Positions 8,182 through 60,700 of a stretch of DNA of 64,000 bases are shown one piece after another. The stretch covers positions 34,348,001 through 34,412,000 of the forward strand of contig CM126228.1 of NCBI GenBank assembly GCA_052327205.1, read 5' to 3'. Made by a program: the position numbers and the translations under genes. Position 1 is the first letter of the stretch. Each line of letters opens with the position of its first letter. Below the pieces are notes generated by a model that did no database searches, was not told the origin of the DNA, and saw only the letters and a list, made by a program, of their open reading frames with translations. This DNA comes from Somniosus microcephalus. Taxonomy: Eukaryota.

Positions 8182-8660
8182 TGTGAGTGATGCTGGCAAG
8201 GCTGCATTTACTGGCCATCCCTGGTGGCTCTGAGAAGGTGGTGAAGAATAGGCGTTGCTTGATGGCTCCTTCCACCATTTTACTGATGACTGGGAGGAGG
8301 CCGATAGGGGGGTAACTGACCGGATTAAATTTATCCTGTTTTTTTTTTTAATGGCTCGGACATGCCTGGGCAACCTTCCACATTGTTGGATAGATGCCAG
8401 TGTCATACGTGTACTGGAACAGCGTGGCTAGGGTGGCAGTTAGCTCCAGTGCACAAATCTTCAGCACTACACCAAGATTAATGGGTCTGCAGTTACATGT
8501 GTCTACTTCGTTTTTAAAAATAGGCACCACATTAGCCTGTCCCCAATGCACTGGTATCTCCCCAGTGTTCATCGGCTCCCTCATAGTGACCATCAATGCC
8601 TCACAAATCTCCTCCCCAGTCTCTCGCAGATGAACAGCATCCATCCCTGGAGCTGTATTT
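8180..8660 (-). mobile_element. LINE fragments: tRNA-headed family tail/RT (8180-8470) joined to a CR1 RT fragment
   Basis: Minus peptides VLKICALELTATLATLFQYTYDTGIYPTMWKVAQ and TGEIPVHWGQANVVPIFK. Confidence 0.7.
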
Positions 8661-9200: not shown

Positions 9201-12200
9201 AGTGTATTAGGGATGGGTTTCTTGAGCAGTATGTAACTGAACCGACCGGGGGCAAGCAACCTTAGATTTGGTCCTGTGTAATGAGACAGGATTAATTAAA
9301 AATGTCCTAGTAAAGGATCCCCTGGGAATGAGTGACCATAACATGGTTGAATTCCATATTCAATTAGAGGGTGAGAAGGTTGGATCTCAAACAAGCGTGC
9401 TGAGCTTGAATAAAGGAGACTATGAAGGTATGAGAGCGGAATTGATTAGAGTGGACTGGGAAAATAGATTAAAGGGTAAGACGGTACATGATCAGTGGTG
9501 TACATTTAAGGAGTTATTTTACAAATTCCAAAAAAAAAATATTCTACTGAGGAAAAAAGGGTGTAAAAGAAAAGATAGCCATCCATGGCTAAGTAAAGTA
9601 ATTAAGGATAGAATCCGACTAAAAACAAGGGCATATAAGGTAGCCAAATCTACAGGGAGGATAGAAGATTGGGAAGTCTTTAAACGACAGCAAAAAATAA
9701 CTAAAAGATTGATTAAGAAAGGGAAGATAGATTATGAAAGTAAATTAGCAAAAAATATAAAAACAAATAGCAAAAGTTTCTATAGTTATATAAAAAGAAA
9801 AAGGGTGGCTAAAGTAAATGTTGGTCCCTTAGAGGATGAGACCGGGAAATTAATGGTGGGAAACATGGAGATGGCAAAAACACTGAACAGATATTTTGTA
9901 TCAGTCTTTACGGTAGAGGACACTAAGAATATCCCAACACTGGGCAAACAGGGGGCTCTAGGGGGGGAGGAGCTAAATACGATTAAAATCACTAAGGAAG
10001 TGGTACTCGGTAAAATAATGGGACTCAAGGCGGATACATCCCCTGGACCTGATGGCTTACATCCTAGGGTCTTGAGGGAAGTGGCGGTAGGGATTGTGGA
10101 TGCATTGGTAATAATTTTCAAAAACTCCCTGGACTCAGCAAAGGTCCCGGCAGATTGGAAAACTGCTAATGTAACACCCTTATTTAAAAAGGGTAGTAGG
10201 CAGAAGGCTGGAAACTATAGACCTGTTAGCCTAACATCTGTGGCTGGTAAAATTTTAGAGTCCATTATTAAGGAGACAGTAACGGGATATTTGGATAAAC
10301 ATAATTTAATAGGACAAAGTCAGCATGGTTTTATGAAGGGGAAGTCATGTTTGACAAATTTGCTTGAGTTCTTTGAGGAAGTAACATACAGGGTGGATAA
10401 AGGGGAACCAGTGGACGTAGTGTATTTAAACTTCCAAAAGGCATTTGACAAGGTGCCACACAAAAGATTATTGCTCAAGATAAAAAATCACAGGATTGGG
10501 GGTATTATTCTGGCATGGGTGGAGGATTGGCTATCTAACAGAAAGCAGAGAGTTGGGATAAATGGTTCATTCTCAGACTGGCAATCAGTAACTAGTGGTG
10601 TTCCGCAGGGGTCAGTGCTGGGTCCCCAACTCTTTACAATCTATATTAACGATTTGGAGGAGGGGACCGAGTGTAACATATCAAAGTTTGCAGATGATAC
10701 AAAGATGGGAGGGAAAGTAGTGAGTGAGGAGGACATAAAAAACCTGCAAGGGGACATAGACAGGCTAAGTAAGTGGGCAGAGATTTGGCAGATGGAATAC
10801 AATACTGGAAAGTGTGAGGTTATGCACTTTGGCAGGAAAAATCATAGAGCAAGTTATTATCTTAATGGCAAGAAACTGGAAAGTACTGTAGTACAAAGGG
10901 ATCTGGGGGTCCTGGTGCACAAAACTCAAAAAGTTAGTATGCAGGTGCAGCAAGTGATCAAGAAGGCCAATGGAATGTTGGCTTTTATTGCTAGGGGGAT
11001 AGAATATAAAAACAGGGAGGTATTGCTGCAGTTGTACAAGGTATTGGTGAGATCGCACCTGGAATACTGCATACAGTTTTGGTGTCCATACTTAAGAAAA
11101 GACATACTTGCTCTCGATTCAGTACAAAGAAGGTTCACTCGGTTAATCCCGGGGATGAGGGGGTGGACATATGAGGAGAGGTTGAGTAGATTGGGACTCT
11201 ACTCATTGGAGTTCAGAAGAATGAGAGGGAATCTTATTGAAACATATAAGATTGTGAAGGGGCTTGATCGGGTGGATGCGGTGAGGATGTTCCCAATGAT
11301 GGGTGAAACTAGAACTAGGGGGCATAATCTTAGAATAAGGGGCTGCTCTTTCAAAACTGAGATGGGGAGAAACTTCTTCACTCAGAGGGTAGTAGGTCTG
11401 TGGAATTTGCTGCCCCAGAAAGCTGTGGAAGCTACATCATTAAATAAATTTAAAACAGAAATAGACAGTTTCCTAGAAGTAAAGGGAATTAGGGGTTACG
11501 GGGAGTGGGCAGGAAATTGGACATGAGTCAATTAGAGGGTGAGAAGGTTGGATCTCAAACAAGCGTGCTAAGCTTGAATAAAGGAGACTATGAAGGTATG
11601 AGAGCGGAATTGAGTAGAGTGGATTGGGAAAATAGATTAAAGGGTAAGACGATACATGATCAGTGGTGTACATTTAAGGAGTTATTTTACAACTTCCAAA
11701 AAAATATATTCCACCGAGAAGAAAAGGGTGTAAAAGAAAAGACAGCCATCCGTGGCTAAGTAAAGAAATTAAGGATAGTATTCGGCTAAAAACAAGGGCA
11801 TATAAGGTAGCCAAATCTAGTGGGAGGATAGAGGATTGAGAAAACTTTAAAAGACAGCAAAAAATAACAAAAAGATTGATTAAGAAAGGGAAGATAGATT
11901 ATGAAAGTAAATTAGCAAAAAATATAAAAACAGATAGTAAGAGTTTTTATAGTTATATAAAAAGAAAAAGGGTGGCTAAAGTAAATGTTGGTCCCTTAGA
12001 GGATGAGACCGGGAATTTAATGGTGGGAAATATGGAGATGGCAAAAACACTGAATGAATATTTTGTATCAGTCTTTACAGTAGAGGACACTAAGAATATC
12101 CCAACACTGGACAAACAGGGGGCTATGGGGGGGGAGGAGCTAAACACGATCAAAATCACTAAGGAAGTGGTACTCGGTAAAATAATGGGACTCAAGGCGG

Positions 12201-14423
12201 ATAAATCACCTGGACCTGATGGCTTACATCCTAGGGTCTTGAGGGAAGTGGCGGTAGGAATTGTGGATGCATTAGTAATAATTTTCCAAAACTCCCTGGA
12301 CTCAACAAAGGTCCCGGCAGACTGGAAAACTGCTAATGTAACACCCTTATTTAAAAAGGGCAGTAGACAGAAGGCTGGAAACTATAGACTGGTTAGCCTA
12401 ACATCTGTGGTAGGTAAAATTTTGGAGTCCATTATTAAGGAGACAGTAACAGGACATTTGGATAATCATAATTTAATAGGACAAAGTCAGCATGGTTTTA
12501 TGAAGGGGAAGTCATGTTTGACAAATTTGCTGGAGTTCTTTGAGGAAGTAACATATAGGGTGGATAAAGGGGAACCAGTGGACGTAATGTATTTAGACTT
12601 CCAAAAGGCATTTGACAAGGTGCCACACAAAAGATTATTGCTTAAGATAAAAAAATCACGGGATTGGGGTAATATTCTGGCATGGATAGAGGATTGGCTA
12701 TCTAACAGAAGGCAGAGAGTTGGGATAAATGATTCATTCTCAGACTGGCAATCAGTAACTAGTGGTGTTCCGCAGGGGTCAGTGCTGGGTCCCCAACTCT
12801 TTACAATCTATATTAACGATTTGGAGGAGGGGACCGAGTGTAACATATCAAAGTTTGCAGATGATACTAAGATGGGAGGGAAAGTAGTGAGTGAGGAGGA
12901 CATAAAAAACCTGCAAGGGGACATAGACAGGCTAAGTAAGTGGGCAGAGATTTGGCAGATGGAATACAATACTGGAAAGTGTGAGGTTATGCACTTTGGC
13001 AGGAAAAATCGTAGAGCAAGTTATTATCTTAATGGCAAGAAACTGGAAAGTACTGAAGTACAAAGGGATCTGGGGGTCCTGGTGCACAAAACTCAAAAGG
13101 TTAGTATGCAGGTGCAGCAAGTGATTAAGAAGGCCAATGGAATGTTGGCTTTCATTGCTAGGGGGATAGAATATAAAAATAGGGAGGTATTGCTTCAGTT
13201 GTACAAGGTATTGGTGAGACCGCACCTGGAATACTGCATACAGTTTTGGTGTCCATACTTAAGAAAAGACATACTTGCTCTCGCGTCAGTACAAAGAAGG
13301 TTCACTCGGTTAATCCCGGGGATGAGGGGATGGACATATGAGGAGAGGTTGAGTAGATTGGGACTCTACTCATTGGAGTTCAGAAGAATGAGAGGCGATC
13401 TTATTGAAACATATAAGATTGTGAAGGGGTTGGATCGGGTGGATGCGGGGAGGATGTTCCCGATGATGGGTGAAACTAGAACTAGGGGGCATAGTCTTAG
13501 AATAAGGGGCTGCTCTTTCAAAACTAAGATGAGGAGGAACTACTTCACTCAGAGGGTGGTAGGTCCATGGAATATGCTGCCCCAAAAAGCTGTAGAAGCT
13601 ACATCATTACATAAATTTAAAACAGAAATAGACAGTTTCCTAGAAGTAAAGAGAATTAAGGGTTACGGGGAGCGGGCAGGAATTTGGACATGAGTCTAGG
13701 TTCGGATCGGACATGGCCCTGTGGGTAGCGGAGCGGGCCCAGGGGCCGTGTAGCCTGATCCTGCTCCTATTTCGTGTGTCTAATTCTGTTAGATTCAGGA
13801 GATGGTTCTGTGATAGTAGATTGGCGGTTAGGATCAGATCAGCCATGATCTTACTGAATGGCGGAGCAGGCTCGAGGGGCCGATTGGCCCACTCCTGCTC
13901 CTATTTCTTATGTTATGAGTCTAGGTTCAGAACGGTCATGGCCCTGTGGGTAGCGGAGCGGGCCCAGGGGCCGTGTAGCCTGGTCCTGCTCCTACTTCTT
14001 GTGTTCTAATTCTGTGTTAGATTTCAGGAGATGGTTCTATTCACAGGGATTAGTGGAGACATCGAACAGGCTGGCAGCTAAGTGTCCTTCAAGAGTAAAT
14101 TGGGCCTGTTCCTGGCTGGGGTGGAGATCACCTTTTACAGAAGGTAAGTACTGTAGGAAATACAAGGACAGAGTGATCTCCTGGATGAGTTTCGATCGCC
14201 TAGATGGGTCGGAGAGGAATTTCCCAGATTTTTTCTCCCAAATTGGCCATTGTTTTTTTTAGCTAGTTTTTCGCCTCTCCCGGGAGATCACATGGGTTCG
14301 GGTGGGATGGAGAGTGATAGTAGATTTGAGGTTAGGATCAGATCAGCCATGATCTTATTGAATGGTGGAGCAGGCTCGAGGGGCCGATTGGCCTACTCCT
14401 GCTCCTATTTCTTATGTTCTTAT
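9201..14423 (+). mobile_element. CR1 LINE (outer copy), 5'-truncated; ORF2 9268-11526, with 3'UTR resuming at 13915-14423
   Basis: 752-aa ORF with the end of the APE domain (SDHNMVEF), RT motifs QHGF, QKAFDKVPH, GVPQGSVLGP, FADD and the CR1 C-terminus TRGH...FFTQRVV; tail (TTCTTATG)n. Confidence 0.95.
11530..13914 (+). mobile_element. CR1 LINE (inner copy of the same family) nested at the stop codon of the outer copy
   Basis: 605-aa ORF 11876-13693 with YLDFQKAFDKVPH and FADD, plus its own shorter 3'UTR and tail; flanked by ATGAGTC at 11523-11529 and 13915-13921. Confidence 0.9.
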
Positions 14424-22116: not shown

Positions 22117-22960
22117 GGAAAAAGTTGGAGATGTAACAGATTTTTAAGCAGATGTAGGGGCAGGGAAAGGGAGTAAAGAACAAAAGGGACGGTCTGTGAT
22201 AGGATGGAAGGCAGGAGAGATTAAGAGACAAAAGGGATGATGGTGAAAGACAAAAGGAGATGGTAATGGGACAGGTAAAGAAACAAAAGATGGGTCTAGA
22301 AGAGGTGTAAATGGGAATGGCAGAATCATCAAAAGCTGCCATGTGAGAGAGAAAAAATAAGGGCAGAGGTTCTGGTGACAGGTGACCAGAAGCTCGGGGT
22401 CCCCCTTACGGACTGAACGGAGGTGTTCCGCAAAGCGGTCACCCAATCTGCATCTGGTCTCCCCTATATCGTGAGCAGCGAATACAGTATACTAAATTGC
22501 AAGAAGCACAAGTAAATCGCTGTTTCACCTGGAAGGAGTGTTTGGGGCCCTGGACAGTGGGAAGGGGGGAGGTAAAAGGGCAGGTGTTGCATCTCCTGCG
22601 CTTGCACGGGAAGGTGCCGTGGGAAGGGGAAGGGGTGTTGGGGGTGATTGAGGAGTGGACCAGGGTGTCGCGGAGGGAGTGGTCCCTTCGGAATGCTGAA
22701 AGGGGAGGTGAGGGGAAGATGTGTTTGGTGGTGGGATCACGCTGGAGGTGGCGGAAATGGCGGAGGATGATCCGTTGAATGTGGAGGCTGGTGGGGTGAA
22801 AGGTAACTTGTCCCATTACAATCTCCTTTTGCCTTGCACCATCATCCCTTTTGCCTTTTAATCTCTCCTACCTTCCATCCTATCACAGACCTTCCCTCCC
22901 CTCCCCCCTCTCCCTGCCCCTACACTTGCTTAAAAACCTGTTACATCTCCAAATTTTTCC

Positions 22961-24183: not shown

Positions 24184-25228
24184 AACTCGATGGCAATAGA
24201 TCAAGAGGCAGGCAAAGAAGAACGTGGCTAAATAATGCAATAGAACAGGGGCAGGTGTAACATTCAAGGGCTGATACAGTTCAGGAAGAATGATTAGCAA
24301 CCTCCAGAACAGAGAGACGGAGATGGGAGCTGAAACTCGGCGGCCGAACATGATGACGACCAAGTCACACATAGGCCACCACTGGGCAAGGACGGCAGGT
24401 TTCCTTCCCTGAAGGACATTAGTGAATTCGTGAATCCGATAGCTTCATGGTCACTTTTACTGATCCCAGCTTTTTGTTTCCAGATTTTTAGTTGAATACT
24501 GAGCGTGAGCTATTGAATTGCTTTTTTCCCGAAGCAATCCTTTAGCGTATTAAATATTTTAGTACACCTTTAATTCAACATTAGTATCTTGCTTTTTCTA
24601 TAAACCTATACCTTGCACTAATAAATAGAATTTGCTTCTTTATCTTCAAAATTCTTTGTGAATGTCTCAATATGCACAAAAATCAATATTTTCAAACTAA
24701 CGCAAATGTGCTCACAGAATCGCTGTACTACACTCATGAAAAAACATGGAAAGAAATATTCGTATTTCAAACAATATCTCCAATCCCAAAGCATCAAAAC
24801 TGTGAGACCTTTCTGGCACAAGGTTTCGCTGGGCAGGTCAGAGGATGGCGGTCCCCTCAACCACGGCGGGGTAGATTTTTACATTTTGACAGGGTTAGAA
24901 AGTGAGCGGTGACGGATCAGCCGCCCATTATTCACCCTGCCCGAGGATCGCAGTCAAAGGAAAGGAAAACCCAGCAGAAGGTACAACATCCGCTCGATCC
25001 ACAAACACCCGTTTTCTGCCAAAGCCCAGAGTTACAATCGACCCCGGTGTTTCCAAGCTACAGCCGCTAAAATCGGAGGTGATCTCTGCACCCAGTTCTC
25101 CGATCCGTGCCTCCATTCCACACTGGGACAGGGTCTTGCAATTTGGGGGTTAAAGGTCACAGCAATACAGGTAAACTCTTAACCGATTTCTTAAAAGCAC
25201 ATTTAAGAAAAGAAAAAAGGGGCTCAAT

Positions 25229-28200
25229 GGGAACAGTAGCATAGTGGTTATGTTACTGGGCTAGTAATCCAGAGGCCTAGACGAATGATCCGTAGACGTG
25301 AGTTCAAATCCCGCCACGGCAGCTGGGGAATTTACTTTCAGTTAATTAAATAAATCTGGAATGAAAAGCTAATATCAGTAATGGTGACCATGAAACTATC
25401 AGATTGTCGTAAAAACCCATCTGGTTCACTTTAGGGAAGGAAATCTGCCGTCCTTACCCGGTCTGGCCTATATGTGACTCCAGACCCACAGCAATGTGGT
25501 TGACGCTTAACTGCCCCTCTGAAATGGCCCAGCAAGTCACTCAGTTGTAAAAAAAAACGCTACGAAAAACAAGAATAATAAAACCGGACGGACCACTCAG
25601 CTTCGACCTCGGCACCGGCTACGGACACAACAACGGCACACCCAGACCAGTCGACCCTGCAAAGTCCTCCTCACCAACATCTGGGGACTTGTGCCAAAAT
25701 TGGGAGAGCCGTCCAGACTAGTCAAGCCGGTCCCAAATTCCTCCATCACCATCCCTGGGTATGTCCTGTCCCACCGGCAGGAGAGACTCACCAGGGGTGG
25801 CGGCACAGTGATATACAGTCGGGAAGGAGTGGCCCGGGAAGTCCTCAACATAGACTCCCGACCCCATGAAGTCTCATGGCTTCAGGTCAAGCATGGGCAA
25901 GGAAACCTCCTGCTGATTACCACCTCCCACCCTCCCTCAGCTGATCAATCAGGACTCCTCCATGTTGAACACCACTTGGAAGAAGCACGGAGAGTAGCAA
26001 GGGCACAGAATGCACTCTGGGTGGGGGACTCAAAGTCCATCACCAAGAGCACTACTACTGACCGAGCTGTCCTGAAGCACGGTGGCATAGTGGTTAGCAC
26101 TGTTGCCTCACAGCGCCAGGGACCCGGGTTCGAATCCGGCCTCGGGCGACTGTCTGTGTGGAGTTTGCACATTCTCCCTGTGTTTGCATGGGTTTCCTCC
26201 GGGTGCTCCGGTTTCCTCCCACAGTCCAAAGATGTGCGGGTTAGGATGATTGGCTATGATAAATTGACCCTTAGTGTTAGGGGGATTAAATACGTGGGGT
26301 TACGGGGATAGGGTGGGATATGTGTTGGTGTAGGGGTTACGGGGATCGGGTGGGATATGTGTCAGTGCAGGCTCGATGGGCCGAAATGGCCTCTATCTGC
26401 ACTGTGGGGTTTCTGTGATTCTGTGACATAGCTGTCAGTCTAGGCCTGCGACAGGTGGTGAGAGAACCAACACGAGGGAAAAACCTACTTGACCTCATCC
26501 TCACCAATCTACCTGTCGCAGATGCATCTGTCCATGACAGTGACCACCACACAGTCATTACAGTGACCACCACACAGTCATTGTGGAGACGAAGTCCCGT
26601 CTTCACACTGAGGATACCCTCCATCGTGTTGTGTGTCACAACCACTGTGCTAAACAGAACAGATCTAGCAGCTCAAAACTGGGTATCCATGAGGCGCTGT
26701 GGGCCATCAGCAGCAGCAGAATCGTATTCCACTACAATCCGTAACCTCATGGCCCAGCATATCCCTCACTCTACCATTACCACCAAGCCACCAGGGGACC
26801 AACCCTGGTTCAATAAGGAGTGTAGAAGAGCATGGCAGGAGCAGCACCAGGTGTACCTAAAAATGCGATGCCAACCTGGGGAAGCTGCAACACAGGACTA
26901 CATGCATGCTAAAAAGCAGAAGCAGCATGCTATAGAGAGAGCTAAGCGATCCCACAATTAAAGGATCAGATCAAAGCTCTGCAGTCCTGCCACATCCAGT
27001 CGTGAATGGTGGTGGACCATTGAAAAACTAGTGGGAGGAGGAGGCTCCATGAATATCCCCATCCTCAATGATGGTGGAGCCCAACACGTGAGTGCAAAAG
27101 ACAAAGCTGAAGCGTTTGCAACCATCTTCAGCAAGAAGTGCCCAGTGGATGATCCATATCGGCCTCCTCCTGAGGTCCCCACTACCACAGAAGCCAGTCT
27201 TCAGCCAATTCGATTCACTCCACGTGCTATCAAGAAACAGCTGAGCGCACTGGATACAGCAAAGGCTATGGGCCCCGACAACATCCCGGCTATCGTGCTG
27301 AAGACTTGTGCTCCAGAACTAGCCTCGCCTCTAGCCAAGCTGTTCCAGTACAGTTATAACACTGGCATCTATCCGACAATGTGGAAAACTGCCCAGGTAT
27401 GTCCTGTCCACAAAAAGCAGGACAAATCCAATCCAGCCAATTACCGCCCCATCGCAACTCCTCAGATAATGAAGCAGTCCATGTCCGCATTCAGCAAGAC
27501 CTGGACGACATTCAGGCTTGGGCTGATAAGTGGCAGGTAACATTCGCGCCACACAAGTGCCAGGCAATGACTATCTCCAACAAGTGAGCATCTCTAACCA
27601 CCGCCCCTTGACATTCAATGGCATTACCATTGCCGAATCCCCCACCATCAATATCCTAAGGGTCACCATTGACCAGAAACTTAACTGGACCAGCCACATA
27701 AATACTGTGGCAAAAGGGCAGGTCAGAGGCTAGGTATTCTGCGGCAAGTGTCTCACCTCCTGACTCCCCAAAGCCCTTCCACCATCTACAAGGCACAAGT
27801 CAGGAGTGTGATGGAATACTCCCCACTTGCCTGGATGAGTGCAGCTCCAACAACACTCAAGAAGCTCGACACCATCCAAGACAAAGCAGCCCGCTTGATC
27901 GGCACCTCATCCACCACCTTAAACATTCACTTCCTCCACCACCGGCGTACCATGGCTGCAGTGTGTACCATCCACAAGATGCACTGCAGCAACTCACCAA
28001 GGCTTCTTCGGCAGCATCTCCCAAACCCACGACCTCTTCCACCTAGAAGAACAAGGGCAGCAGGCGCATGGGAACACCACCACCTCCAAGTTCCCCTCCA
28101 AGTCACACACCATCCTGACTTGGAAGTATATCGCTGATCCTTCATCGTCGCTGGGTCAAAATCCTGGAACTCCCTCCCTAACAGCACTGTGGGAGTACCT

Positions 28201-28326
28201 TCACCACACGGACTGCAGCGGTTCAAAGCGGCGGCTCACCACCACCTCCCCAGGGCAATTAGGGATGGGCAATAAATGCTGGCCTTGCCAGCGACGCCCA
28301 CATCCCATGAACGAATAATAAAAAAA
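25229..28326 (+). mobile_element. tRNA-headed, ORF1-less LINE (CR1/L2 group), end-to-end copy with frameshifts, a nested SINE and an RT-core deletion
   Basis: A box TAGCATAGTGG (25237-25247), B box AGTTCAAATCC (25301-25311). APE motifs VLLTNIWGL, RGGGTV, WVGD, EPTRGKNLLDLILT, SDH. RT-flank motifs KAMGPDNIP, PVHKKQDKSNPANYRPI, QQDLDDIQAWADKWQVTF, YKAQVRSVMEY. A-rich end. Confidence 0.9.
26077..26424 (+). mobile_element. V-SINE (HE1-like) nested in the LINE endonuclease
   Basis: tRNA head GGTGGCATAGTGGTTAGCAC...GGGTTCGAATCC; V domain GTGTGGAGTTTGCACATTCTCCC...GGTTTCCTCCCACAGTCCAAAGA; CR1-type tail; splits the host codons VLK^DIA. Confidence 0.9.
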
Positions 28327-28919
28327 TGCTGGAAGTCACTTACGATTACTCAAGATGAGACTGAATCCTACTTAAGATGAAAATCTTCTCCAATACAGCA
28401 CCATATCAAGCAATACTCTGCAAAATATTGTTCATAGATTCTTACAGCCAAGAAGGAGACCATTTGGTCCATCGTGCCGGTGCCCTGAAAGAGCAATATA
28501 ATTAGTCCCACTCCCCTGCTCTTTCCTCATAGCCGTGCAATTGTTCTGCTCAATTTTTAGAAGATCAAAATATAGACCAAACATTTAATCATTTGATCAT
28601 TTAAGACCAAATTGAATGCATTCCTTTCCCAGACCAGAACAACATATTAATCAAGGTATCAGGTGATTAAGAGCCTTCAGAGCTGATAATGACTTTTTGA
28701 GTATAAAGGTGTTTTCACAATGTGTAGTAGGTGCTAGGGGAAGCATAACTGAAGTGGGGACTCACACTCTCCTCGTTTCACTTTTGTTGCACACCACTGG
28801 TGCTTGTGGGGCCCAGATAGATTTGAGAAAATGATACTGTAGTATCAGTGGTAAATTACAGGTTTCCTAACCTCAGTACATGCTCCAGCATGTGAGAGTT
28901 AATTCAGCATTTAAACTCC

Positions 28920-33148: not shown

Positions 33149-33824
33149 GACCCAACACAATCGTCGCTAAGCAAAAGGAAAAATATCTGTCATATTGGGC
33201 AGAAACAACAAAAACCCAAAGCAAACTCAATTGCTACTTGGCCCTAAACAGACAATACAACATAGCTGATTACCTGACCATGGTAAAGGATAACAAACTG
33301 AGAAGAACCTTGACAAGGTACAGACTTAGCGAACATAGCCTAGCGATCGAAAAAGGCAGACACAGGCAGACCAGGCTGCCAAGAGAAGACAGGATATGCT
33401 CTCACTGCAGTCAGGGAGTAGTAGAGACAGAGATGCACTTCCTCACAGCCTGTGGAAAATATCAGGGCATCAGAGAGAATTTCTACCAAAAATTCTCACA
33501 AATATGCCCTGAATTCAGAAATCTGACTGACAACCAAAAACTCCCATTCTTACTGGGGAGGAGAGAAGCTGTGTAACACTGGCGGCACACTATGTTACAG
33601 CTTGCCATGAACAGAGGGACAACCAGTAAACTAAGACAAGAGTATATATAAACAAGGCGAATGTATATTTATAAACTCAGGGATATACCTGTTTATACAC
33701 TGTATGAATGGAACCGCGTTTATGTGTTCAACCATAAATGTATTTTGATGCTTTGGCAACATAAGATGTACCTTATCATGCCAATAAAGCGATTTGTATT
33801 ATTGTATTGTATTGTATTGTATTG
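33149..33824 (+). mobile_element. RTE-X-like LINE 3' fragment, copy 1
   Basis: LTRYRLSEHSLAIEKGRH...RICSHC...ETEMHFLTAC (CCHC knuckle); AATAAA followed by an (ATTGT)n tail. Confidence 0.8.
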
Positions 33825-34866
33825 AGAGGGGGGAGGGAGAGGGAGGGGAGAGAGGGGGGGAGAGAGGTGGGGGAGAGAGGGGTGGGGAGAGAGGGGTGGG
33901 GAGAGAGGGGTNNNNNNNNNNNNNNNNNNNNNNNNNNNNNNNNNNNNNNNNNNNNNNNNNNNNNNNNNNNNNNNNNNNNNNNNNNNNNNNNNNNNNNNNN
34001 NNNNNNNNNNNNNNNNNNNNNNNNNNNNNNNNNNNNNNNNNNNNNNNNNNGGGGGGAGAGGGGGGAGAGTGGGGGGGAGAGAGAGGGGGAGAGAGGGGGG
34101 GAGAGAGGGGGAGAGAGTGGGGGGAGAGGGGGNNNNNNNNNNNNNNNNNNNNNNNNNNNNNNNNNNNNNNNNNNNNNNNNNNNNNNNNNNNNNNNNNNNN
34201 NNNNNNNNNNNNNNNNNNNNNNNNNNNNNNNNNNNNNNNNNNNNNNNNNNNNNNNNNNNNNNNNNNNNNNNNNNNNNGGGGGAGAGAGGGCGGGAGAGAG
34301 GGGGGAGGGGCTGGGGGGGAGGGAGGGGGGGGAGAGGTGGGGGGGGAGAGTGGGGGGGGGAGAGTGGGGGGGGAGAGAGTGGGGGGGGAGAGAGTGGGGG
34401 GGGAGAGTGGGGGGGGGGAGAGTGGGGGGGGGAGAGTGGGGGGGGGAGAGTGGGGGGGGAGAGTGGGGGGGGAGAGTGGGGGGGGAGAGTGGGGGGGGAG
34501 AGTGGGGGGGAGAGTGGGGGGGGAGAGTGGGGGGGGAGAGTGGGGGGGGAGAGTGGGGGGGGAGAGTGGGGGGGGAGTGGGGGGGGGAGAGTGGTGGGGG
34601 GAGAGTGGGGGGGGGAGAGTGGGGGGGGGAGAGTGGGGGGGAGAGTGGGGGGGAGAGAGTGGGGGGGAGAGAGTGGGGGGGGAGAGGGAGGGGGGAGAGG
34701 GGGGGGAGAGGGGGAGGGGGGAGAGGGGGAGGGGGAGAGGGGGAGGGGAGGGAGAGGGGGGGGAGAGGGGGGGAGAGAGGGGGAGGGGGTGGGGGGGGAG
34801 GGGGGGAGAGAGGGGGGGAGGGGGGAGAGAGAGGGGGGGAGAGAGGGGGGGTGAGGCATGGGAGAG

Positions 34867-36128
34867 AATTTCACACTAGGAACAACTAAAATTGAACGAA
34901 CCACAAACTACACATACTTGGGCTTAAAAATCAGTTCTACGGGAAATTTTCATCTGGCTGTGAATGAACTGAAAGAGAAAGCAAGAAGGGCTTTCTATGC
35001 CATTAAAAAATCAATCCAAATAGAAATCCCAATTGGCATTTGGCTCAAAATTTTTAATCAGTAATTGAACCAATTGCACTCTATGGCAGTGAGGTGTGGG
35101 GACCACTAACACAACAAGAATTTGCAAAATGGGACAAACATCCAATTGAGATCCTACATGCAGAATTCTGTAAAAGTATCCTCTGGACTCAAAGGAAAAC
35201 CGTAAACAATGCATGCAGGGCAGAACTAGGCCAATATCCATTAATAATCACTATCCAAAAAAGAGCCACCAAATTTTGGAAACACCTAAAAATGAGCAAC
35301 CCCCACTGCTATCGTTACGAAGCCCTGAAATGCCAAGAGAGGACCATAAAGAAGAATACCCTCAGTCAACTAGTCCTGGGACTCAGCGAAGTAACTACTA
35401 ACACTACTAACAATAACCAGCCCCAGGACAGTGACAGCGTAACACAAAGAATTCGACCCAACACAATCGTCACTAAGCAAAAGGAAAAATATCTGTCATA
35501 TTGGGCAGAAACAACAAAAACCCAAAACAAACTCAATTGCTACTTGGCCCTAAACAGACAATACAACATGGCTGATTACCTGACGATGGTAAAGGATAGT
35601 AAACTGAGAAAAACCTTGACAATGTACAGACTTAATGAACATAGCCTGGCGATCGAAAAAGGTAGACACAGGCAGACCCGGCTACCAAGAGAGGACAGGA
35701 TATGCTCTCACTGCAGCCAGGGAGTGGTGGAGACAGAGGTGCACTTCCTCACAGCTTGTAGAAAATATCAGGGCATAAGGGATAATTTCTACCCAAAATT
35801 CACAAAAATATGCCCGGAATTCAGAAATTTGAATGACGACCAAAAACTCCCATACCTACTAGGGGAAGAGAGAAATTGTGTAACCTTAGCGGCACACTAT
35901 GTTACAGCTTGCCATAAGCAGAGGGACAACAACTAAATATAAGAAAAGAGTATATAAAAATTATATGAATGTATATTTATACACTCAGGGATATATCTGT
36001 TTATACACTGTATGGATAGATCTGTATTTATGTGTTCAACCATGAATGTTTTTCGATGCTTTGGCAACATAAGATGTACCTTGTCATCATGCCAATAAAG
36101 CGATTTGAATTGAATTGAATTGAATTGA
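34867..36128 (+). mobile_element. RTE-X-like LINE 3' fragment, copy 2
   Basis: YTYLGL...KARRAFYAIK, EPIALYGSEVWG, HAEFCKSIL...ACRAELGQYPL, CCHC knuckle; one 1-bp frameshift near 35055; (AATTG)n tail. Confidence 0.85.
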
Positions 36129-46190: not shown

Positions 46191-47515
46191 TGTCCTACTC
46201 AAGGGAGTTCTGCCCGGTGTCCTGGCCAATATTTATCCCTCAACCAACATTTATCCCTCAACCAACATCACTAAAAAACAGATGATCTAGTCATTATAAC
46301 ATTACTGTTTGTGGAATCTTGCAGTGTGCAAACTGGCTGCCGCGTTTCCTACATTACAACAGCGACTACACTTCAAAAGTACTTCATTGGCACTTTGCGA
46401 TGCCCTGTGGTCCAGAAAGGAGTGTCTGGAGAGGTTTTAGTCTGTGGAGATTGGGATACCACGAAGAACTTATGTAATCACCATATTAATCAGATATACT
46501 ATGATTTCTCATCTGATGTATGTGTCGATACACACTAATTGTGTAAATGACAACACAGTATCTAAATGGATAAGTGTGCTTATTATTTCATAACATACCA
46601 TCTACTCTCCACAAATCAAGGAAAACCCAGTTAACCACTAGCCACAACCCCAGAGCATTACACATCTGAGCAGCACTTGTTACAGCTCCCTCTCGAAGCA
46701 GACGCCAATACAGATACATATATTGTGGCAGATATTGATACTGATGAAGATTAGGGTGAGGAATCACTATGAGAAAGGTGGTGAATGATAAGTTGGCTGG
46801 TACAGGGCAGCAGCCCAAAATGATGCAAGTCCTTACTGAGTTTTTAATTTGTTCTTGGGATGTGGGCAAGACAATAGCAATTGTCCATTTGTTGTTGTCC
46901 TGAGGGCAATAAGAGTCAACCACATAGTGTAGGACTGGAGTCACTTGTACGCCAGACCAAGCAGGAGGGACAGTTTCCCTTCCCTGAATGACATTAGTGA
47001 ATCAGTTAGGCTTTTACCACAAGCTGGCAGCTTTTAAGATCATTTTCAGGTGCAAGTTCCCCCAGGATTTCAAATGGAGACTGTTACAGCAGCAGAACTT
47101 AATCCCTAATATCTCCTTTGGCTTAGAATCCATTTTTCTCTGATTATGGTTCTGTGAAGTATCTTGGGACGCTTTTCTACACTATATAAATGAAAGCTGT
47201 TTTTTGTTGTTATACACCTGACATTGGGATATGATCTGGGTAGCGTGAAAGGCATTGCCATCTCCCATATTGGCTGTGGAGGATTAGAAGTCTGCACTGC
47301 AGTCTATCATTGAGCATTTGTAATGGAGACCTTCGTTTGACAGGCCATAGGCACAATAGCCACACCACTCATGAATTCTCACATAGCTGCTATGGAGCCT
47401 TTAGTGTTGAAATTCCAAGTAGTCATGGCCAGATTCCATTCACTTAGAGAACAGTTAGAGGCACCCATGATAAAGGGATTCCAAAGACTCATAGATGACC
47501 TCTATTCTATGGTCA

Positions 47516-48802
47516 TTCACTATAAGCCCACAGCTACCTGGACTACACTTCCTCCCACCCCGCTTCCTGTAAGGACTCTATTCCATTCTCCCAGTTTCTC
47601 CGTCTCCGCCGCGTCTGCTCTAACGATGCCACCTTCCATACTAGCGCTTCCGACATGTCTTCCTTTTCCCTCAACCGAGGATTCCCCTCTACTGTGGTTG
47701 ACACGGGCCTTGACCGTGTCCATTCTATTTTCCGCACTTCTGCTCTCACCCCTTCCCCTCCCTCCCGGAACCATGATAGGGTTCCCCTTGTCCTCACCTT
47801 TCACCCTACCAGCCTTCACATTCAACGGAGCATCCTCTGCCATTTCCGCCACCTCCAACGTGATCCCACCACCAAACACATCTTCCCCTCACCTCCCCTT
47901 TCAGCATTCCGTAGGGACCGCTCCCTCCGTGACACCCTGGTCCACTCCTCTATCACCCCTAACACCCCTTCCCCTTCGCCCAGCACCTTCACATGCAAGC
48001 GCAGGAGATGCAACACATGCCCTTTTACCTCCTCCTTTCCCACTGTCCAGGCCCCAAAGACTTCTTCCAGGTGAAACAGCGATTTATTTGTACTTCTTAC
48101 AATTTAGTATACTGTATTCGCTGCTCACGATGTGGTCTCCTCTACATTGGGGAGACCAAACGTAGATTGGGTGACTGCTTTGCGGAACACCTCCGTTCAG
48201 TCTGTAAGGGTGACCCCGAGCTTCCGGTCGCCTGTCATTTTAATTCTCCACTCCACTCCCACTCTGACCTCTCCGCCCTTGCTTCTTACACTGTTCCAAT
48301 GAAGCTCACGTAAGCTCGAGGAACAGCACCTCATCTTTCGATTAGGCACTTTACAGCCTTCTGGACTCAACATCAAGTTTAACAATTTCAGACCATAACC
48401 TCTGCCCCTATCCTTTTTTTCCCCCTCTCTCTCACATGGCAGCTGTCGATCATTCTGCCATTGCCATTTACACTTCATCCAGAGTCATCTTTTGTTTCTT
48501 AACTTGTTCCATTACCATCTCCGTTTGCCTTGCACCATCATCCCTTTTGTCTCTTAATCTCTCCTGCCTTCCACCCTATCACAGACTTTCCCTTTTGTTC
48601 TTTCCTCCCCTCCCCCCTTTCCCTGCCCCTACACTTGCTTAAAAACCTGTTCCATCTCCAGCTTTTTCCAGTTCTGACGAAGGGTCATCGACCTGAAATG
48701 TTAACTCTGTTTCTCTCTCCACAGATGCTGCCTGACCTGCTGAGTATTTCCAGCATTTTCTGTTTTTATTTCAGATTTCCAGCATCCGCAGTATTTTGCT
48801 TT
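47516..48802 (+). mobile_element. Penelope-like element 3' part (end of RT, linker, GIY-YIG, pLTR with hammerhead at 48670-48706)
   Basis: CKRRRCNTC; NLVYCIRCSRCGLLYIGETKRRLGDCFAEHL; TSD TCTATTCT(A/C)TGGTCA at 47501-47515 and 48803-48817. Confidence 0.9.
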
Positions 48803-50321: not shown

Positions 50322-50770
50322 CTTATTCATTCTCGGGATGTGGGCATCGCTGGCAAGGCCAGCATTTATTGCCCATCCCTAGTTGCCCTTGAGAAGGTGG
50401 TGGTGAGCCACCTTCTTGAACCGCTGCAGTCCGTGTGGTGAAGGTGCTCCCACAGCGCTGTTAGGGAGGGAGTTCCAAGATTTTGACCCAGCGACGATGA
50501 AGGAATGGCGATATATTTCCAAGTCAGGATGGTGTGTAACTTGGAGGGGAACTTGGAGATGGTGGTGCTCCCATGCGCCTGCTGCCCTTGTCCTTCTAGG
50601 TGGAAGAGGTCGCGAGTTTGGGAGGTGCTGCCGAAGAAGCCTTAATGAGTTGCTGCAGTGCATCTTGTAGATGGTACACACTGCAGCCACGGTGCGCAGG
50701 TGGTGGAGGGAGTGAATGTTTAAGGTAGTGGATGGGGTGCCAATCAAGCAGGCTGCTTTGTCCTGGATAG
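50322..50770 (-). mobile_element. 3' fragment of the tRNA-headed LINE family
   Basis: IQDKAACLIGTPSTTLNIHSLHH...AGSKSWNSLPN, collinear with 27873-28320. Confidence 0.9.
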
Positions 50771-51217
50771 TTCTGCTTTCCCTCATTAGACAGTATCTGT
50801 ATAATTACACACTTTATTTTTGCATAGCTTGTTCCATAATGGTACCAGTATGACACAGGCACCAACAATGTTCCTGTGCCAATGAAGTAATCACTTAACT
50901 CAATCCCACTTATCTCTCTACCAGTGCCAGGTCCAGATCTCTCTACAGCTGGCACAGTATCACTGCACTTTTATGTTCTGTACAATCCAAACAACACTAC
51001 GCAGGACACATTACCACCTAGTCAATAACGATTGCAGAACCACAGAAATCCAGTCCCAGAAGTTTATACACTCCACGGCTGGATCAGGAACAAGAGAAAT
51101 TCTTTGAAAGCTCCTCCTTGTTCCTAACCCACCTATGGTAACATGTTAACAGACCCTCCTCCTTCACAAATCACACCCCACTGAACAGAATAATCATCAA
51201 AGCCCTGGTGGCACACC

Positions 51218-52865: not shown

Positions 52866-53185
52866 AAGAAAGAAATAGCTTGCATTTACATAGCGCCTTT
52901 CACAACCTCAGGGCATCCCAAAGCGCTTCATTGTTGTAACGTAGGAAATGTAGCAGCCAATTTGCACATAGCAAGCTCCTACTGAAAGCAATGAGATAAA
53001 TGACCAGATAATCTGTTTTGGTGTTGTTGGTTGAGCGATAAATATTGGCCAGGACACCGGGAGAACCGCCCTGCTCTTCTACAAATAGTCCTACGGGATC
53101 TTATACATCCACTTGAGAGGGCAGTTTAACGTCTCATCCGAAAGTCGGCACCTCCGACAGTGCAGCATTCCCTCAGTACTACTGG
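52866..53185 (-). mobile_element. DeuSINE
   Basis: Tail TTGCATTTACATAGCGCCTTTCAC and Deu domain. Confidence 0.8.
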
Positions 53186-53203
53186 TGGATTGGGGCAGGT
53201 ATT

Positions 53204-54279
53204 CCTTTTTCCTCAACCGAGGATTCCCCTCTACTGTGGTTGACATGGCCCTTGACCGTGTCCGTTCCATTTCCCGCACTTCTGCTCTCACCCCTTCCCC
53301 TCCCTCCCAGAATCACGATAAGGTTCCCCTTGTCCTCTGCTCTCACCCCTTCCCCTCCCTCCCAGAATCACGATAAGGTTCCCCTTATCCTCACCTTTCA
53401 CCACACCAGCCTCCACATTCAACGGATCATCCTCCACCATTTCCGCCACCTCCAACGTGATCCCACCACCAAACACATCTTCCCCTCACCTCCCCTTTCA
53501 GCATTCCGAAGGGACTGCTCCCTCCGCGACACCCTGGTCCACTCTTCAATCACCCCTAACAGCCCTGCTCCTTCACCTGGCACCTTCCCGTGCAAGCGCA
53601 GGAGATACAACACCTGCCCTTTTACCTCCTCCCTTCCCACTGTCCAGGGCCCCAAACATTCCTTCCAGGTGAAACAGCGATTTACTTGTACTTCTTGCAA
53701 TTTAATATACTGTATTCGCTGCTCACGATGTGGTCTCTTCTACATTGGGGAGACCAAACACAGATTGGGCGACCGCTTTGTGGAACATCTCCGTTCAGTC
53801 TGTAAGGGTGACCCTGAGCTTCCGGTCACCTGTCACTTTAATTCTCCGCTTCACTCCCACTCTGATCTCACTGTCCTCGGCCTATTACATTGTTCCAATG
53901 AAGCTCAACGTAAGCTCGAGGAACAGCACCTCATCTTTCGATTAGGCACTTTACAGCCTTCCGGACTCAACATTGAGTTCAACAATTTCAGATAATAATA
54001 CCTGCCCCCATTTTTCATGCTGTATGATTTTGCCATTTCCATTTGCAACATTTTCACAGTATGTTCCTTCAATTCCTTTCTCCCCCCCCCCCCCCCCCCC
54101 CCGTCTCTGCACCTGCTTAATATCTGTTACATTTCCAGCTTATTCCAGTTCTGATGAAGGGTCCCAGACCTGAAACGTTAACTCTGTTTCTCTCTCCACG
54201 GATGCTGCCTGGCCTGCTGAGTATTTCCAGCATTTTCTGTTATTTCAGATTTCCAGCATCCGCAGTATTTTGCTATTGT
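53204..54279 (+). mobile_element. Penelope-like element 3' part with GIY-YIG ORF (to 53995) and hammerhead at 54147-54183
   Basis: NLIYCIRCSRCGLFYIGETKHRLGDRFVEHL...RKLEEQHLIFRLGTLQPSGLN; perfect 15-bp TSD ATTGGGGCAGGTATT at 53189-53203 and 54280-54294. Confidence 0.92.
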
Positions 54280-57724: not shown

Positions 57725-60700
57725 CATAGAACCATAGAAGATAGGAGCAGGAGTAGGCCATTCGGCCCCTCGAGCCTGCTCCGCCATTTAATGAGATCAT
57801 GGCTGATCATCCACATTCAGTACCCTGTCCCTGCTTTCTCCCCACATCCCTTTAGCCTTAAGAAATATATCTAACTCCTTCTTGAATATATTTAATGAAT
57901 TGGGCTCAACTGCCTTTTGTGGTAGAGAATTCCACAGGTTCACCACTCTCTGGGTGAAGAAATTCCTCCTCATCTCTGTCCTAAATGGCTTACCCCTTAT
58001 CTTTAAACTGTGACCCCTGGTTCTGGACTCCTCCACCATCGGGAAAATCCTTCCTGCATCTAGTTTGTCTAGTCCTGTTAGAATTTTATAAGTTTCAATG
58101 AGATCCCCTCACATTCTTCTAAACTCCAGCGAATATAAGCCCAATCGACCCAATCTCTCCTCATACGTCATTCCTGCCATCCCAGGTATCAGTCTGGTGA
58201 ATCTTCGCTGCACTCCCTCCATGGCAAGAACATCCTTCCTCAGATAAGACGAACAAAACTGCACACAATACTCAAGGTGTGGTCTCACCAAGACCCTGTA
58301 CAACTGCAGCAAGACATCCTTGCTCCTGTACTCAAATCCTCTCGCTATGAAGGCCAACATACCATTTGCCTTCTTAACCGCCTGCTGCACCTCCATGCTT
58401 ACCTTCAGCGACTGGTGCACAAGGACACCCAGGTCTCGTTGCATTTCCCCTTCTCCCAATCTATTGCCATTCAGATAATAATCTGCCTTCCTGTTTTTGC
58501 CACCAAAGTGGATAACCTCGCATTTATCCACATTATACTGCATCTGCCATGCATCTGCCCAATCAGCCAACCTGTCCAAATCATACTGGAGTTTCTCTGC
58601 ATCCCCCTCACAGCACACACGCCCACCCAGCTTTGTGTTGTCTGCAAACTTGGAGATATTACATCTAGTTCCCTCGTCTAGATCATTAATATATATTGTG
58701 AATAACTGGGGTCCTAGCACCGATCCCTGCGGTACCCCACTAGTCACTGCCTGCCACTCGGAAAAAGACCCGTTTATTCCAACTCTTTGCTTCCTGTCTG
58801 CCAACCAGTTCTCTATCCAAGTCAGTACCTTACCCCCAATCTGATGTGCTTTAACTTTACACGCTAATCTCTTATGCGGGACCTTATCGAAAGCCTTATG
58901 AAAGTCCAAATACACCACATCCACTGGTTCTCCCTTATCTATTCTACCAGTTACATCCTCAAAAAATTCCAGAAAATTAGTCAGCACGATTTACCTTTTG
59001 TAAATCCATGTTGACTTTGTCTGATCCTGTCACTGTTTTCCAAGTGCTCTGCTAATTCGTCTTTTATAATGGACTCTAGCATTTTCCCCACTACTGATGT
59101 CAGGCTTACCGATCTATAATTCCCCGTTTTCTCTCTACCACCTTTTTTAAATAGTGGGGTTACATTAGCTACCCTCCAATCCATGGGAACTATTCCAGAG
59201 TCTATAGAATTTTGGAAGATGACCCGTAATGCACCTACTATTTCTTGGGCCACTTCCTTAAGTACCCTCGGATGTAAATCATCAGGCCCTGGGGATTTAT
59301 TGGCATTCAATCCCGTCATTTCCCTAACACCATTTCCCTACAAATACTGATTTCATTCAGTTCCTCCTTCTCATTAGACCCTATGTTCCCCGACATCTCT
59401 GGACTGTTATTTGTGTCCTCCTTTGTGAAGACAGAACCAAAGTATGTATTTAATTGGTCAGCCATTTCTTTATTCCCCATTATAAATTCCCCATATTCTG
59501 ACTGCAAGGGACCTACGCTTAACTGCACCAATCTTTTTCTCTTCACATATCTATAGAAGCTTTTACAGTCAGTATTTATGTTCACTGCAAGCTTACTCTC
59601 GTACTCTATTTTCCCCCTCTTAATTAATCCCTTTGTCCTCCTTTACTGAATCCTAAACTGCTCCCAATCCTCAATTTTGCTGCTTTTTCTGGCCAATTTA
59701 TATGTCCTCTCCTTGGATCTTATGCTATCCCTAATTTCCCCTGTTAGCCACAGTTGCGCCACCTTTTTTGTTTTATTTTTATGCCAGACAGGGATGAACA
59801 AATTCTGTAGTTCATCCATGCGATCTTTAAATGTTTCCCATTGCCTATCCACCGCCCACCCTTTAAGTAACGTTCCCCAATCCATCCTAGCCAACTCGCA
59901 CCTCATACCAGCATAGTTTCCTTTATTTAAATTCAAGACCCTAGTCTTTGAGTCAACTACTTCACTCTCCATCTTAATGAAGAATTCTATCATATTATGA
60001 TTGCTCCTCCCCAAGGGGCATCGCACAACATTGCTAATCAATCCTTTCTCATTACATAATACCCAGTCTAAGATGGCCTGATCTCTCGTTGGTTCCTCGA
60101 CATATTGGTCCAGGAAACCATCCCGTATACACTCTAGGAATTCCTTCTCCACAGTATTGTTACTAATTTGGTTAGCATAATCTATATGTAAATTAAAGTC
60201 ACCCATGATAACTGCTGTGCCCTTATTGCACGCATCTCTAATTTCCTGTTCAATTCCATCCCCAACCTCAGCATTACTGTTTGGGGGTCTGTATACAACT
60301 CCCACTAAAGTTTTCTGCCCCTTGGTATTTCTCAGCTCTACCCATACAGATTCCACATCATCAGAGCTAATATCCTTCCTTACTATTGTGTTAATCTCCT
60401 CTTTAACCAGCAATGCTACCCCACCTCCTTTTCCTTTTTGCCTGTCCTTCCTGAATATTGAATACCCCTGGATGTTGAATGCCCAGCCTTGGTCACCCTG
60501 GAGCCATGTCTCCGTAATCCCAATTATATCATATCCGTTTACATCTATTTGCGCAGCTAATTCATCCACCTTATTACGAATGTTCCTCGCATTAAGACAC
60601 AAAGCCTTCAGGCTTGTTTTTTTTAACACGCTTAGTCCTTTTAGAATTCTTATTTACTGTGGCCCTGTTTGATTTACACACTTGATTTCTCTGCCTTCCA

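Follow-up and report, generated by a model that had tools for sequence, protein, structure and literature searches.

A Zenon-type LINE with a tRNA-derived SINE head, a candidate autonomous Pol III-transcribed retrotransposon of sharks and rays

The window, that is the whole 64,000-nt stretch of Somniosus microcephalus DNA analysed here, contains at 25229..28326 of the forward strand a dead, decayed full-length copy of a Zenon LINE that begins with a tRNA-derived head. From 5′ to 3′ the family consists of the tRNA-derived head, a SINE-type body, one APE-RT frame, a short 3′ stem-loop and an A tail. Two subfamilies were distinguished, an older one (O), to which the window copy belongs, and a young one (Y). 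The window copy is laid out as follows.

25229..28326, + strand: tRNA-headed Zenon LINE copy of the older subfamily O, from a family about 3.3 kb long when intact
25229..25326, + strand: tRNA-derived head, with a sharp family 5′ end 8-10 nt upstream of the A box
25237..25247, + strand: A box (type 2 Pol III promoter), sequence TAGCATAGTGG
25256..25272, + strand: anticodon-arm-like hairpin, sequence CTGGG-CTAGTAA-TCCAG
25276..25295, + strand: long variable-arm-like hairpin, with compensatory changes between O and Y; damaged in the window copy
25301..25311, + strand: B box, sequence AGTTCAAATCC
25327..25547, + strand: SINE-type body, common to a short head-body-tail SINE of the same genome
25559..25663, + strand: AUG-less basic leader in the endonuclease frame, with a candidate non-AUG start at a conserved GCT-ACG
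25664..28262, + strand: single APE endonuclease-RT frame, VLLTNIWGL from 25664; broken in the window copy
26078..26424, + strand: unrelated nested tRNA-SINE, inserted after integration; other copies have no SINE at this site
28263..28326, + strand: 55-nt 3′ UTR containing a stem-loop and AATAAA (28271-28276), plus A tail; the short SINE has the same tail

Re-reading of the sequence placed the A box, the anticodon-like arm and the B box where the original prediction had read them, and the first APE motif, VLLTNIWGL, begins at 25664 as it had said. The frame of the window copy is damaged by the nested SINE (presumably V-SINE/HE1-like), by small deletions and by one stop, and about 490 nt of the RT core are gone at 27453. 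At other loci, natural copies were found in which a head is followed by an intact frame, of 972 and 953 aa respectively. The copy with the longer frame, L184, has matches to PF03372 (residues 42-242), PF14529 (136-245) and PF00078 (529-775), and the catalytic motifs GDFN, SDH and FADD are present.

By comparison of sequences, the element is a member of the published elasmobranch Zenon family (PMC13343379; here and below, statements taken from cited papers refer to the parts of each that were available). As in the window family, elasmobranch Zenon has a single APE-RT ORF, no ORF1, a poly-A tail and a length of 2.9-3.3 kb (PMC13343379). In the same source Zenon is reported from elasmobranchs, coelacanth and hagfish, always without ORF1 and with a poly-A tail. 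The lack of room for an ORF1 had been noted before; Zenon being always ORF1-less (PMC13343379), the trait is ancestral and does not speak for Pol III transcription. When the first 400 nt were compared by eye, head, body and leader were found to start all seven elasmobranch Zenon consensuses (CarCar, HypSab, RhiTyp and ScyCan Zenon-1; SquAca Zenon-1, Zenon-2 and Zenon-3; PMC13343379). The head was absent from the first 400 nt of all three non-elasmobranch consensuses (two from hagfish and one from coelacanth, the start of the latter being of low confidence), and these are T-rich there. L2, Daphne, Crack and Vingi, which had been considered as the identity of the family, were dropped after the match to the Zenon consensuses.

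More distant relatives were also compared. Other Zenon or CR1-Zenon elements (from Lepidoptera, hagfish, coelacanth (CR1-5_LCh) and marine invertebrates) resemble the family in having a single ORF and an A tail, with best matches of 41-46% over the RT. A SIDE derived from lepidopteran Zenon differs from the family in that it has neither tRNA homology nor a Pol III promoter in the published description (PMC6740152). In a quick RT tree, built without labelled Zenon references, the family falls among compact single-ORF elements of invertebrates, in one clade of support 97 with a butterfly protein and apart from the CR1 of the window. Among 80 metagenome homologues, many on contigs with little upstream DNA, a regular-expression search found both boxes upstream of the frame in none, and in the longest frames of these contigs T4 was near the codon-shuffle expectation. 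ARAGORN called no tRNA in the 60 of these 80 that were run, a program that also misses the head in the window and whose negative is therefore uninformative. No relatives were found in viral and prokaryote collections.

In order to determine whether the joint of head and ORF is a property of this locus or of the family, other insertions were collected. Exact-pattern searches of the genome, whose counts are lower bounds, gave 2,497 body-to-leader and 323 body-to-tail matches, and none for the reversed controls. With a query spanning the body-ORF junction, 5,286 candidates were obtained in the 6.4-Gb genome, of which 40 were scored. Among 29 other loci the element started at the equivalent of window positions 25224-25236 in 18, within the head in two and within the body or leader in nine; these 29 shared no sequence upstream of the 5′ end, their flanks being unrelated. 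When head and body alone were used as the query, 21/25 loci ran on into the ORF and 4/25 had internal deletions with differing breakpoints, the 25 including the query locus itself, one previously sampled locus and one duplicate pair. Selection of copies by their RT gave a consistent picture. Of 40 such copies, drawn from 122 RT matches (20 by frame length and 20 by score), 13 go as far as the leader, the body or the head, whereas the other 27 are 5′-truncated at scattered points; no alternative 5′ end shared among these 40 was found abutting the element. The junction, at the same position in many insertions, is thus a trait of the family as the original prediction required, and upstream extension into an ORF1 was absent from every copy examined. 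The junction counts, the 29 loci, the head-and-body query and the RT-selected copies together exclude chance adjacency, SINE targeting and an ORF1. A 13-nt target-site duplication was seen in one of 23 complete units, the other 22 being at the null level with none of at least 7 nt.

We also asked whether the ORF has been selected while joined to the head. For each subfamily a yardstick sequence was made from the commonest codon per column (48 and 12 copies, with the intermediate L083 excluded). Counted from the first APE motif, 937 codons are open in both yardsticks, and over these O and Y differ by a dS of 0.229 and a dN of 0.038, a ratio of 0.16; for changes private to single copies, dN/dS is 0.56-0.63. 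In 26 copies with both parts the head tree and the ORF tree share the O/Y split, with the exception of the chimera L242. By these measures of divergence, purifying selection has acted on the ORF during its linkage to the head. The element had been called in effect an autonomous SINE, and the description holds in the sense of an autonomous element with a SINE head because of this selection (dN/dS 0.16) and the co-inheritance of head and ORF. As in SINE2 elements, it has a tRNA-derived head with A and B boxes; it departs from them in not being short, non-coding and non-autonomous, since it is 3.3 kb long with a selected 972-aa frame.

A and B boxes form an internal type 2 Pol III promoter. Differences between O and Y in these boxes are confined to degenerate positions. 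The spacer between the boxes has diverged, and its hairpin is retained through three compensatory pair changes (alignment columns 51-68, 53-67 and 54-66), which, counted between the two lineages O and Y, amount to three events. The anticodon-like arm has been lost in Y, where 2/5 pairs are broken. The 5′ end of the family coincides with the +1 position of a tRNA. From these comparisons the promoter in the head looks maintained. Neither ARAGORN nor Rfam called the head as a tRNA in the window. When it was aligned to tRNA genes of the same genome (types Ser, Thr, Leu and Asp, with shuffle maxima of 43-60), the best tRNA-Ser(AGA) scored 62-65.5 and tRNA-Thr(AGT) 51-58.5. The head had been assigned to tRNA-Thr(AGT); that origin is not borne out among the four types compared, since tRNA-Ser(AGA) scores higher and a long variable arm fits Ser.

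Minimal Pol III terminators are TTTT and TVTTT (PMC8466645). The sense strand of 25229..28326 contains no T4+ run, as had been read by eye, and the T4-free gap from 25012 to 28554 is the longest in the window outside a G/A-rich simple repeat. Nine T3 runs are present, five of them within the nested SINE and three in the 5′ region; the ninth, at 27115, is the single coding TTT previously noted outside the nested SINE. It understates the family level because the window copy has lost about 490 nt of the RT core, and intact frames hold 5-8 TTT runs. A4 runs are common, as had also been said (17 A4+ runs in the window copy), and the neighbouring CR1 ORF2s are T4-rich, with 7 T4+ in 2,283 nt and 6 in 1,851 nt (about 3/kb); a shorter CR1 frame in the window has 0 in 1,008 nt. 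Across 61 copies, which are not independent of one another, 29 T4+ runs were counted in 161,217 nt inside the element and 1,071 in 193,516 nt of flank (0.18/kb versus 5.53/kb), so that T-runs in the family lie far below background. A4+, C4+ and G4+ runs inside the same copies number 742, 524 and 363 (4.6, 3.3 and 2.3/kb). Further sets agree: 20 Y copies gave 8 T4+ in 58,838 nt, and 16 additional loci gave another 8 in 28,224 nt. Both subfamily yardsticks contain none.

The claim that the coding sequence had been purged of terminators was examined by codon shuffling and was borne out in part. With 1-4 T4 runs expected per ORF, their absence alone has a p of 0.03-0.3; what stands is the avoidance of synonymous T where it would form a run. 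Because CpG decay leaves T in front of G, naive codon shuffling makes the effect look larger than it is; after stratification for CpG the effect is smaller and still present. We therefore excluded CpG-derived T (sites with G following) and compared synonymous T at sites where it would give a run of at least 3 with that at isolated sites. In six copies T was used at 5/55, 6/58, 4/55, 4/50, 1/42 and 8/57 of the run sites, against 22-24% of isolated sites (Fisher p = 0.029, 0.035, 0.006, 0.014, 0.0004 and 0.15), a drop in 5/6 copies, the p of 0.15 belonging to one older copy. Pooled controls gave 97/271 at run sites versus 260/641 at other sites for LINE frames of the same genome, and 414/1174 versus 1089/3267 for 11 homologues. 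Individually, 0/5 same-genome frames showed a drop, and of the 11 homologues one showed a drop (p = 0.04) and one an excess. The avoidance of T rises with run length and is absent from same-genome CR1 and from the homologues. Sites at which T could yield a run of at least 4 number 6-13 per frame in the family versus 17-63 in homologues.

In the intact copies L177 and L182, five-mers holding 4 or more T number 3, compared with 74-75 holding 4 or more A. Young copies still contain one TGTTT, which is a weak terminator. At codon boundaries the observed/expected ratio is 0.36-0.58 for TT and 0.53-0.67 for TA; judged from such ratios, a general avoidance of U contributes to the T-poor frame. The suggested preference for TTC over TTT was found as a modest bias (Phe TTT:TTC of 3:15 and 5:14, the T-ending share in other two-fold boxes being about 35-40%), the stronger signal being the avoidance of T-runs across codon boundaries. 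A low Phe content (2%) was discarded as a sign specific to the family, several homologues being equally low. On the run-site comparison, avoidance of T-runs is real and specific to the family; since O and Y share ancestry, it amounts to little more than one evolutionary sample.

The 3′ ends are A-rich in the 60 ends listed, often with T mixed in. Of the 60 copies listed, 26 have a T4+ run no more than 30 nt from the end, versus 142/891 flank windows, an excess that slippage of the A tail may explain. At least two T precede the A tail in 29/59 ends, and T4+ occurs in 11/59 versus 55/594 of the background, weakly above it. Folding of the 3′ UTR stem-loop gave a z of -1.84, which is weak. The mammalian T+ SINEs (B2, Dip, Ves), which have a Pol III promoter and AATAAA followed by a T stretch of varying length and an A tail (PMC8466645), may be comparable to the element; they are non-coding, and the T stretch of the element is weakly above background.

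A short head-body-tail SINE of roughly 420 nt occurs in the same genome, and its tail is the Zenon 3′ UTR together with the three codons before it. The body at 25327..25547 is putatively the Deu domain of SacSINE1. SacSINE1 and LmeSINE1 were reportedly described as Deu-SINEs by Nishihara in 2006. Like the element, these have a tRNA head, a body and a LINE-type tail, and their copy lengths of up to 425-463 bp fit the short form; unlike it, they are non-coding and non-autonomous, and their tail resembles L2-2_CM or CR1-4_DR, whereas the short SINE here has a Zenon 3′ end (PMC5499810). tRNA-Deu SINEs with a common head, body and tail are reported from sharks, chimaera and coelacanth (PMC5499810), so the SINE module appears older and more widespread than the headed LINE. 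Bipartite LINE derivatives or SIDEs (PMC5786205; Persaeus, PMC6740152) join LINE 5′ and 3′ ends, as do the four unique deletions found with the head-and-body query. They carry a LINE 5′ UTR inside a SINE; here an autonomous LINE begins with the tRNA promoter of a SINE.

The frame of L184 has its first Met at residue 286 of 972, beyond the APE domain. In Y an in-frame TAA lies just past the body, three codons upstream of GCT-ACG. The GCT is in the APE frame in 45/49 copies scored. By eye, it keeps this frame in the consensuses from white shark, stingray, whale shark and catshark, notwithstanding length differences of 3 nt. An out-of-frame AUG is present in the leader of 10/23 O copies, 0/39 Y copies and, by eye, 6/7 published consensuses, and a uORF or frameshift route may thus be possible. 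Since the frame is AUG-less through the APE domain and the first Met follows the endonuclease, initiation by either route is, as far as frames can tell, non-canonical. In subfamily O, AATAAA occurs two or three times in the first 330 nt and about a dozen ATGs precede the AUG-less frame. Folding of the body revealed no conserved or covarying structure (z 0.21; ten input regions, L038 lying partly in flank), and so lends no support to an IRES there.

Taking these data together, we slightly favour, at somewhat better than an even chance, an autonomous Zenon-type LINE transcribed by Pol III into one 3.3-kb RNA that is both translated and reverse-transcribed; Pol III transcription in some form is probable. 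A template switch in the shark-ray ancestor would have swapped the 5′ UTR of Zenon for the head and body of a SINE, and T-runs would subsequently have been purged, being Pol III terminators. The uncapped RNA would be translated by non-AUG initiation just 3′ of the body, near GCT-ACG. The protein would bind the 3′ stem-loop in cis and integrate the element by target-primed reverse transcription without ORF1; the short head-body-tail SINEs would be mobilised in trans by the LINE, new ones arising by internal deletion. That an uncapped Pol III RNA of 3.3 kb would have to be translated is a serious obstacle, and a 1995 report is said to have described a translatable Pol III RNA. Pol III transcripts can retrotranspose without ORF1p (PMC2666806). 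The boldest form of the proposal, in which this is the first natural autonomous protein-coding Pol III retrotransposon, with an uncapped AUG-less 3.3-kb RNA, the Deu domain as ribosome entry and activity since the shark-ray ancestor, is doubtful though far from negligible.

The element could also be an ordinary Pol II LINE, the captured head serving as a mere 5′ UTR or as a Pol II promoter and the poverty in T stemming from other pressures such as LINE strand bias or avoidance of U-rich decay or sensing motifs. LINEs are regarded as Pol II transcripts (PMC5786205), AATAAA lies close to the A tail, the absence of T4 is weak in individual frames, and depletion of TA at codon boundaries about equals that of TT. 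We nevertheless consider this reading rather unlikely, because the avoidance of T grows with run length and is missing from same-genome CR1 and homologues, the A and B boxes are retained across sharks and rays, and the 5′ end falls on the tRNA +1 position. Early AATAAAs and about a dozen upstream ATGs before an AUG-less frame would also ill suit a scanned capped mRNA. A divided route, with Pol III RNA being copied and the protein coming from capped read-through transcripts that Pol II makes at the same locus or at others, would explain why the boxes are kept and T-runs purged with no need to translate an uncapped RNA, and thousands of copies are available in the genome. It is improbable, given that a dN/dS of 0.16 and the co-inheritance of head and ORF imply linkage in cis and that the frame remains AUG-less.

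That head and ORF form no functional unit at all can be regarded as refuted. The missing duplication of at least 7 nt in 22/23 units would agree with it. Chance adjacency of SINE and LINE, LINE targeting of a SINE site and a non-autonomous long SINE with a dead ORF are opposed by the 2,497 junctions, the congruent head and ORF trees, truncated copies with no SINE upstream, purifying selection and the intact 972- and 953-aa frames behind a head. The reading of a Pol III-transcribed autonomous LINE is thus preferred to the three others.

The Zenon family itself is already known, and the new aspect, relative to the parts of its description consulted, is the SINE-type promoter on a Zenon LINE. In the main text of PMC13343379 there is no mention of tRNA, promoter, polymerase or pol III, and in its preprint none of tRNA, promoter or pol III; in the parts of the paper examined, nothing is remarked on the head, on the purging of T-runs or on the lack of a start AUG. 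No description of a tRNA-headed or Pol III-transcribed LINE was found in the literature searched, which lay outside Repbase, Dfam and subscription journals. In the textbook division LINEs are Pol II transcripts and coding, and SINEs are Pol III transcripts and non-coding. If the preferred reading is true, a long Pol III RNA can serve as a natural mRNA; under the boldest form, the polymerase divide between LINE and SINE would also vanish and the Deu domain would gain its first molecular function. The compact system would make it testable whether and how Pol III transcripts get translated and what SINE body domains such as Deu do. The element is likely the autonomous partner of shark tRNA-Deu SINEs, and the data suggest that shark repeat libraries confuse LINE 5′ ends with SINE copies.

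Sequences of the family were also present in public data. Runs from eight organisms contained 0.37-0.89 of the words of L184, the runs labelled or guessed to be RNA consisting of contigs from which start, strand and polymerase cannot be read. In four public runs the contigs covered 30/30 bins, which we do not count as a sign of Pol III expression, and recurrent body-to-tail joints were seen.

The public sequencing run X15, which is made of contigs, was mapped on positions 400-3760 of L184, an intact natural copy of the headed Zenon LINE with a 972-aa frame. Depth over the head and body was ∼50 times that over the 5′ part of the ORF, contig depth being a poor measure. This result suggests that the X15 organism has many more copies of the short SINE, which shares its head, body and 3′ end with the LINE, than of the LINE itself, the opposite of what is found in the source genome.

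Within L198, a locus of the source genome, oriented positions 1470-1980 are a short deletion derivative that has a 13-nt target duplication and begins with part of its own head in inverted orientation. Of two other copies in this genome, L242 is a chimera of the older (O) and younger (Y) subfamilies, O-like in its 5′ part and Y in its 3′ part, and L083 is intermediate between the two.

Five homologous proteins (P0019, P0020, P0027, P0032 and P0036) form a Zenon clade that is Branchiostoma-like and whose Phe content, 1.5-1.8%, is below that of headed shark Zenon. This clade is possibly a second T-poor lineage. A tRNA Deu-SINE occurs in amphioxus as well.

The window contains the following further Zenon-related pieces and CR1 elements:

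50379-50804, minus strand, 3′ end fragment, same family as the 25229..28326 copy
8249-8473, minus strand, RT piece, same family as that copy
About 24360-24490, minus strand, older fragment resembling the SINE body of headed Zenon
46588-47001, minus strand, older fragment resembling the same body
9241-11526, plus strand, nearly intact CR1 ORF2 frame, 761 aa, first of a tandem pair
11840-13693, plus strand, nearly intact CR1 ORF2 frame, 617 aa, second of the pair
57881-60653, minus strand, third CR1

The tandem frames are 95% identical across the RT region, and all three CR1 elements served as controls for the Zenon comparisons. We take 33151-35936 to hold two RT C-terminal fragments of a different LINE type flanking a long G/A-rich simple repeat. 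Presumably, 22439-22867, 47526-48074 and 53117-53995 are Penelope-like pieces and 61446-62153 is an integrase fragment.

Elsewhere in the source genome, tRNA-Ser(AGA) genes lie in large tandem arrays on C4 (0.74-1.9 Mb) and C43 (4.89-4.92 Mb), with tRNA-Leu and tRNA-Asp genes as neighbours.
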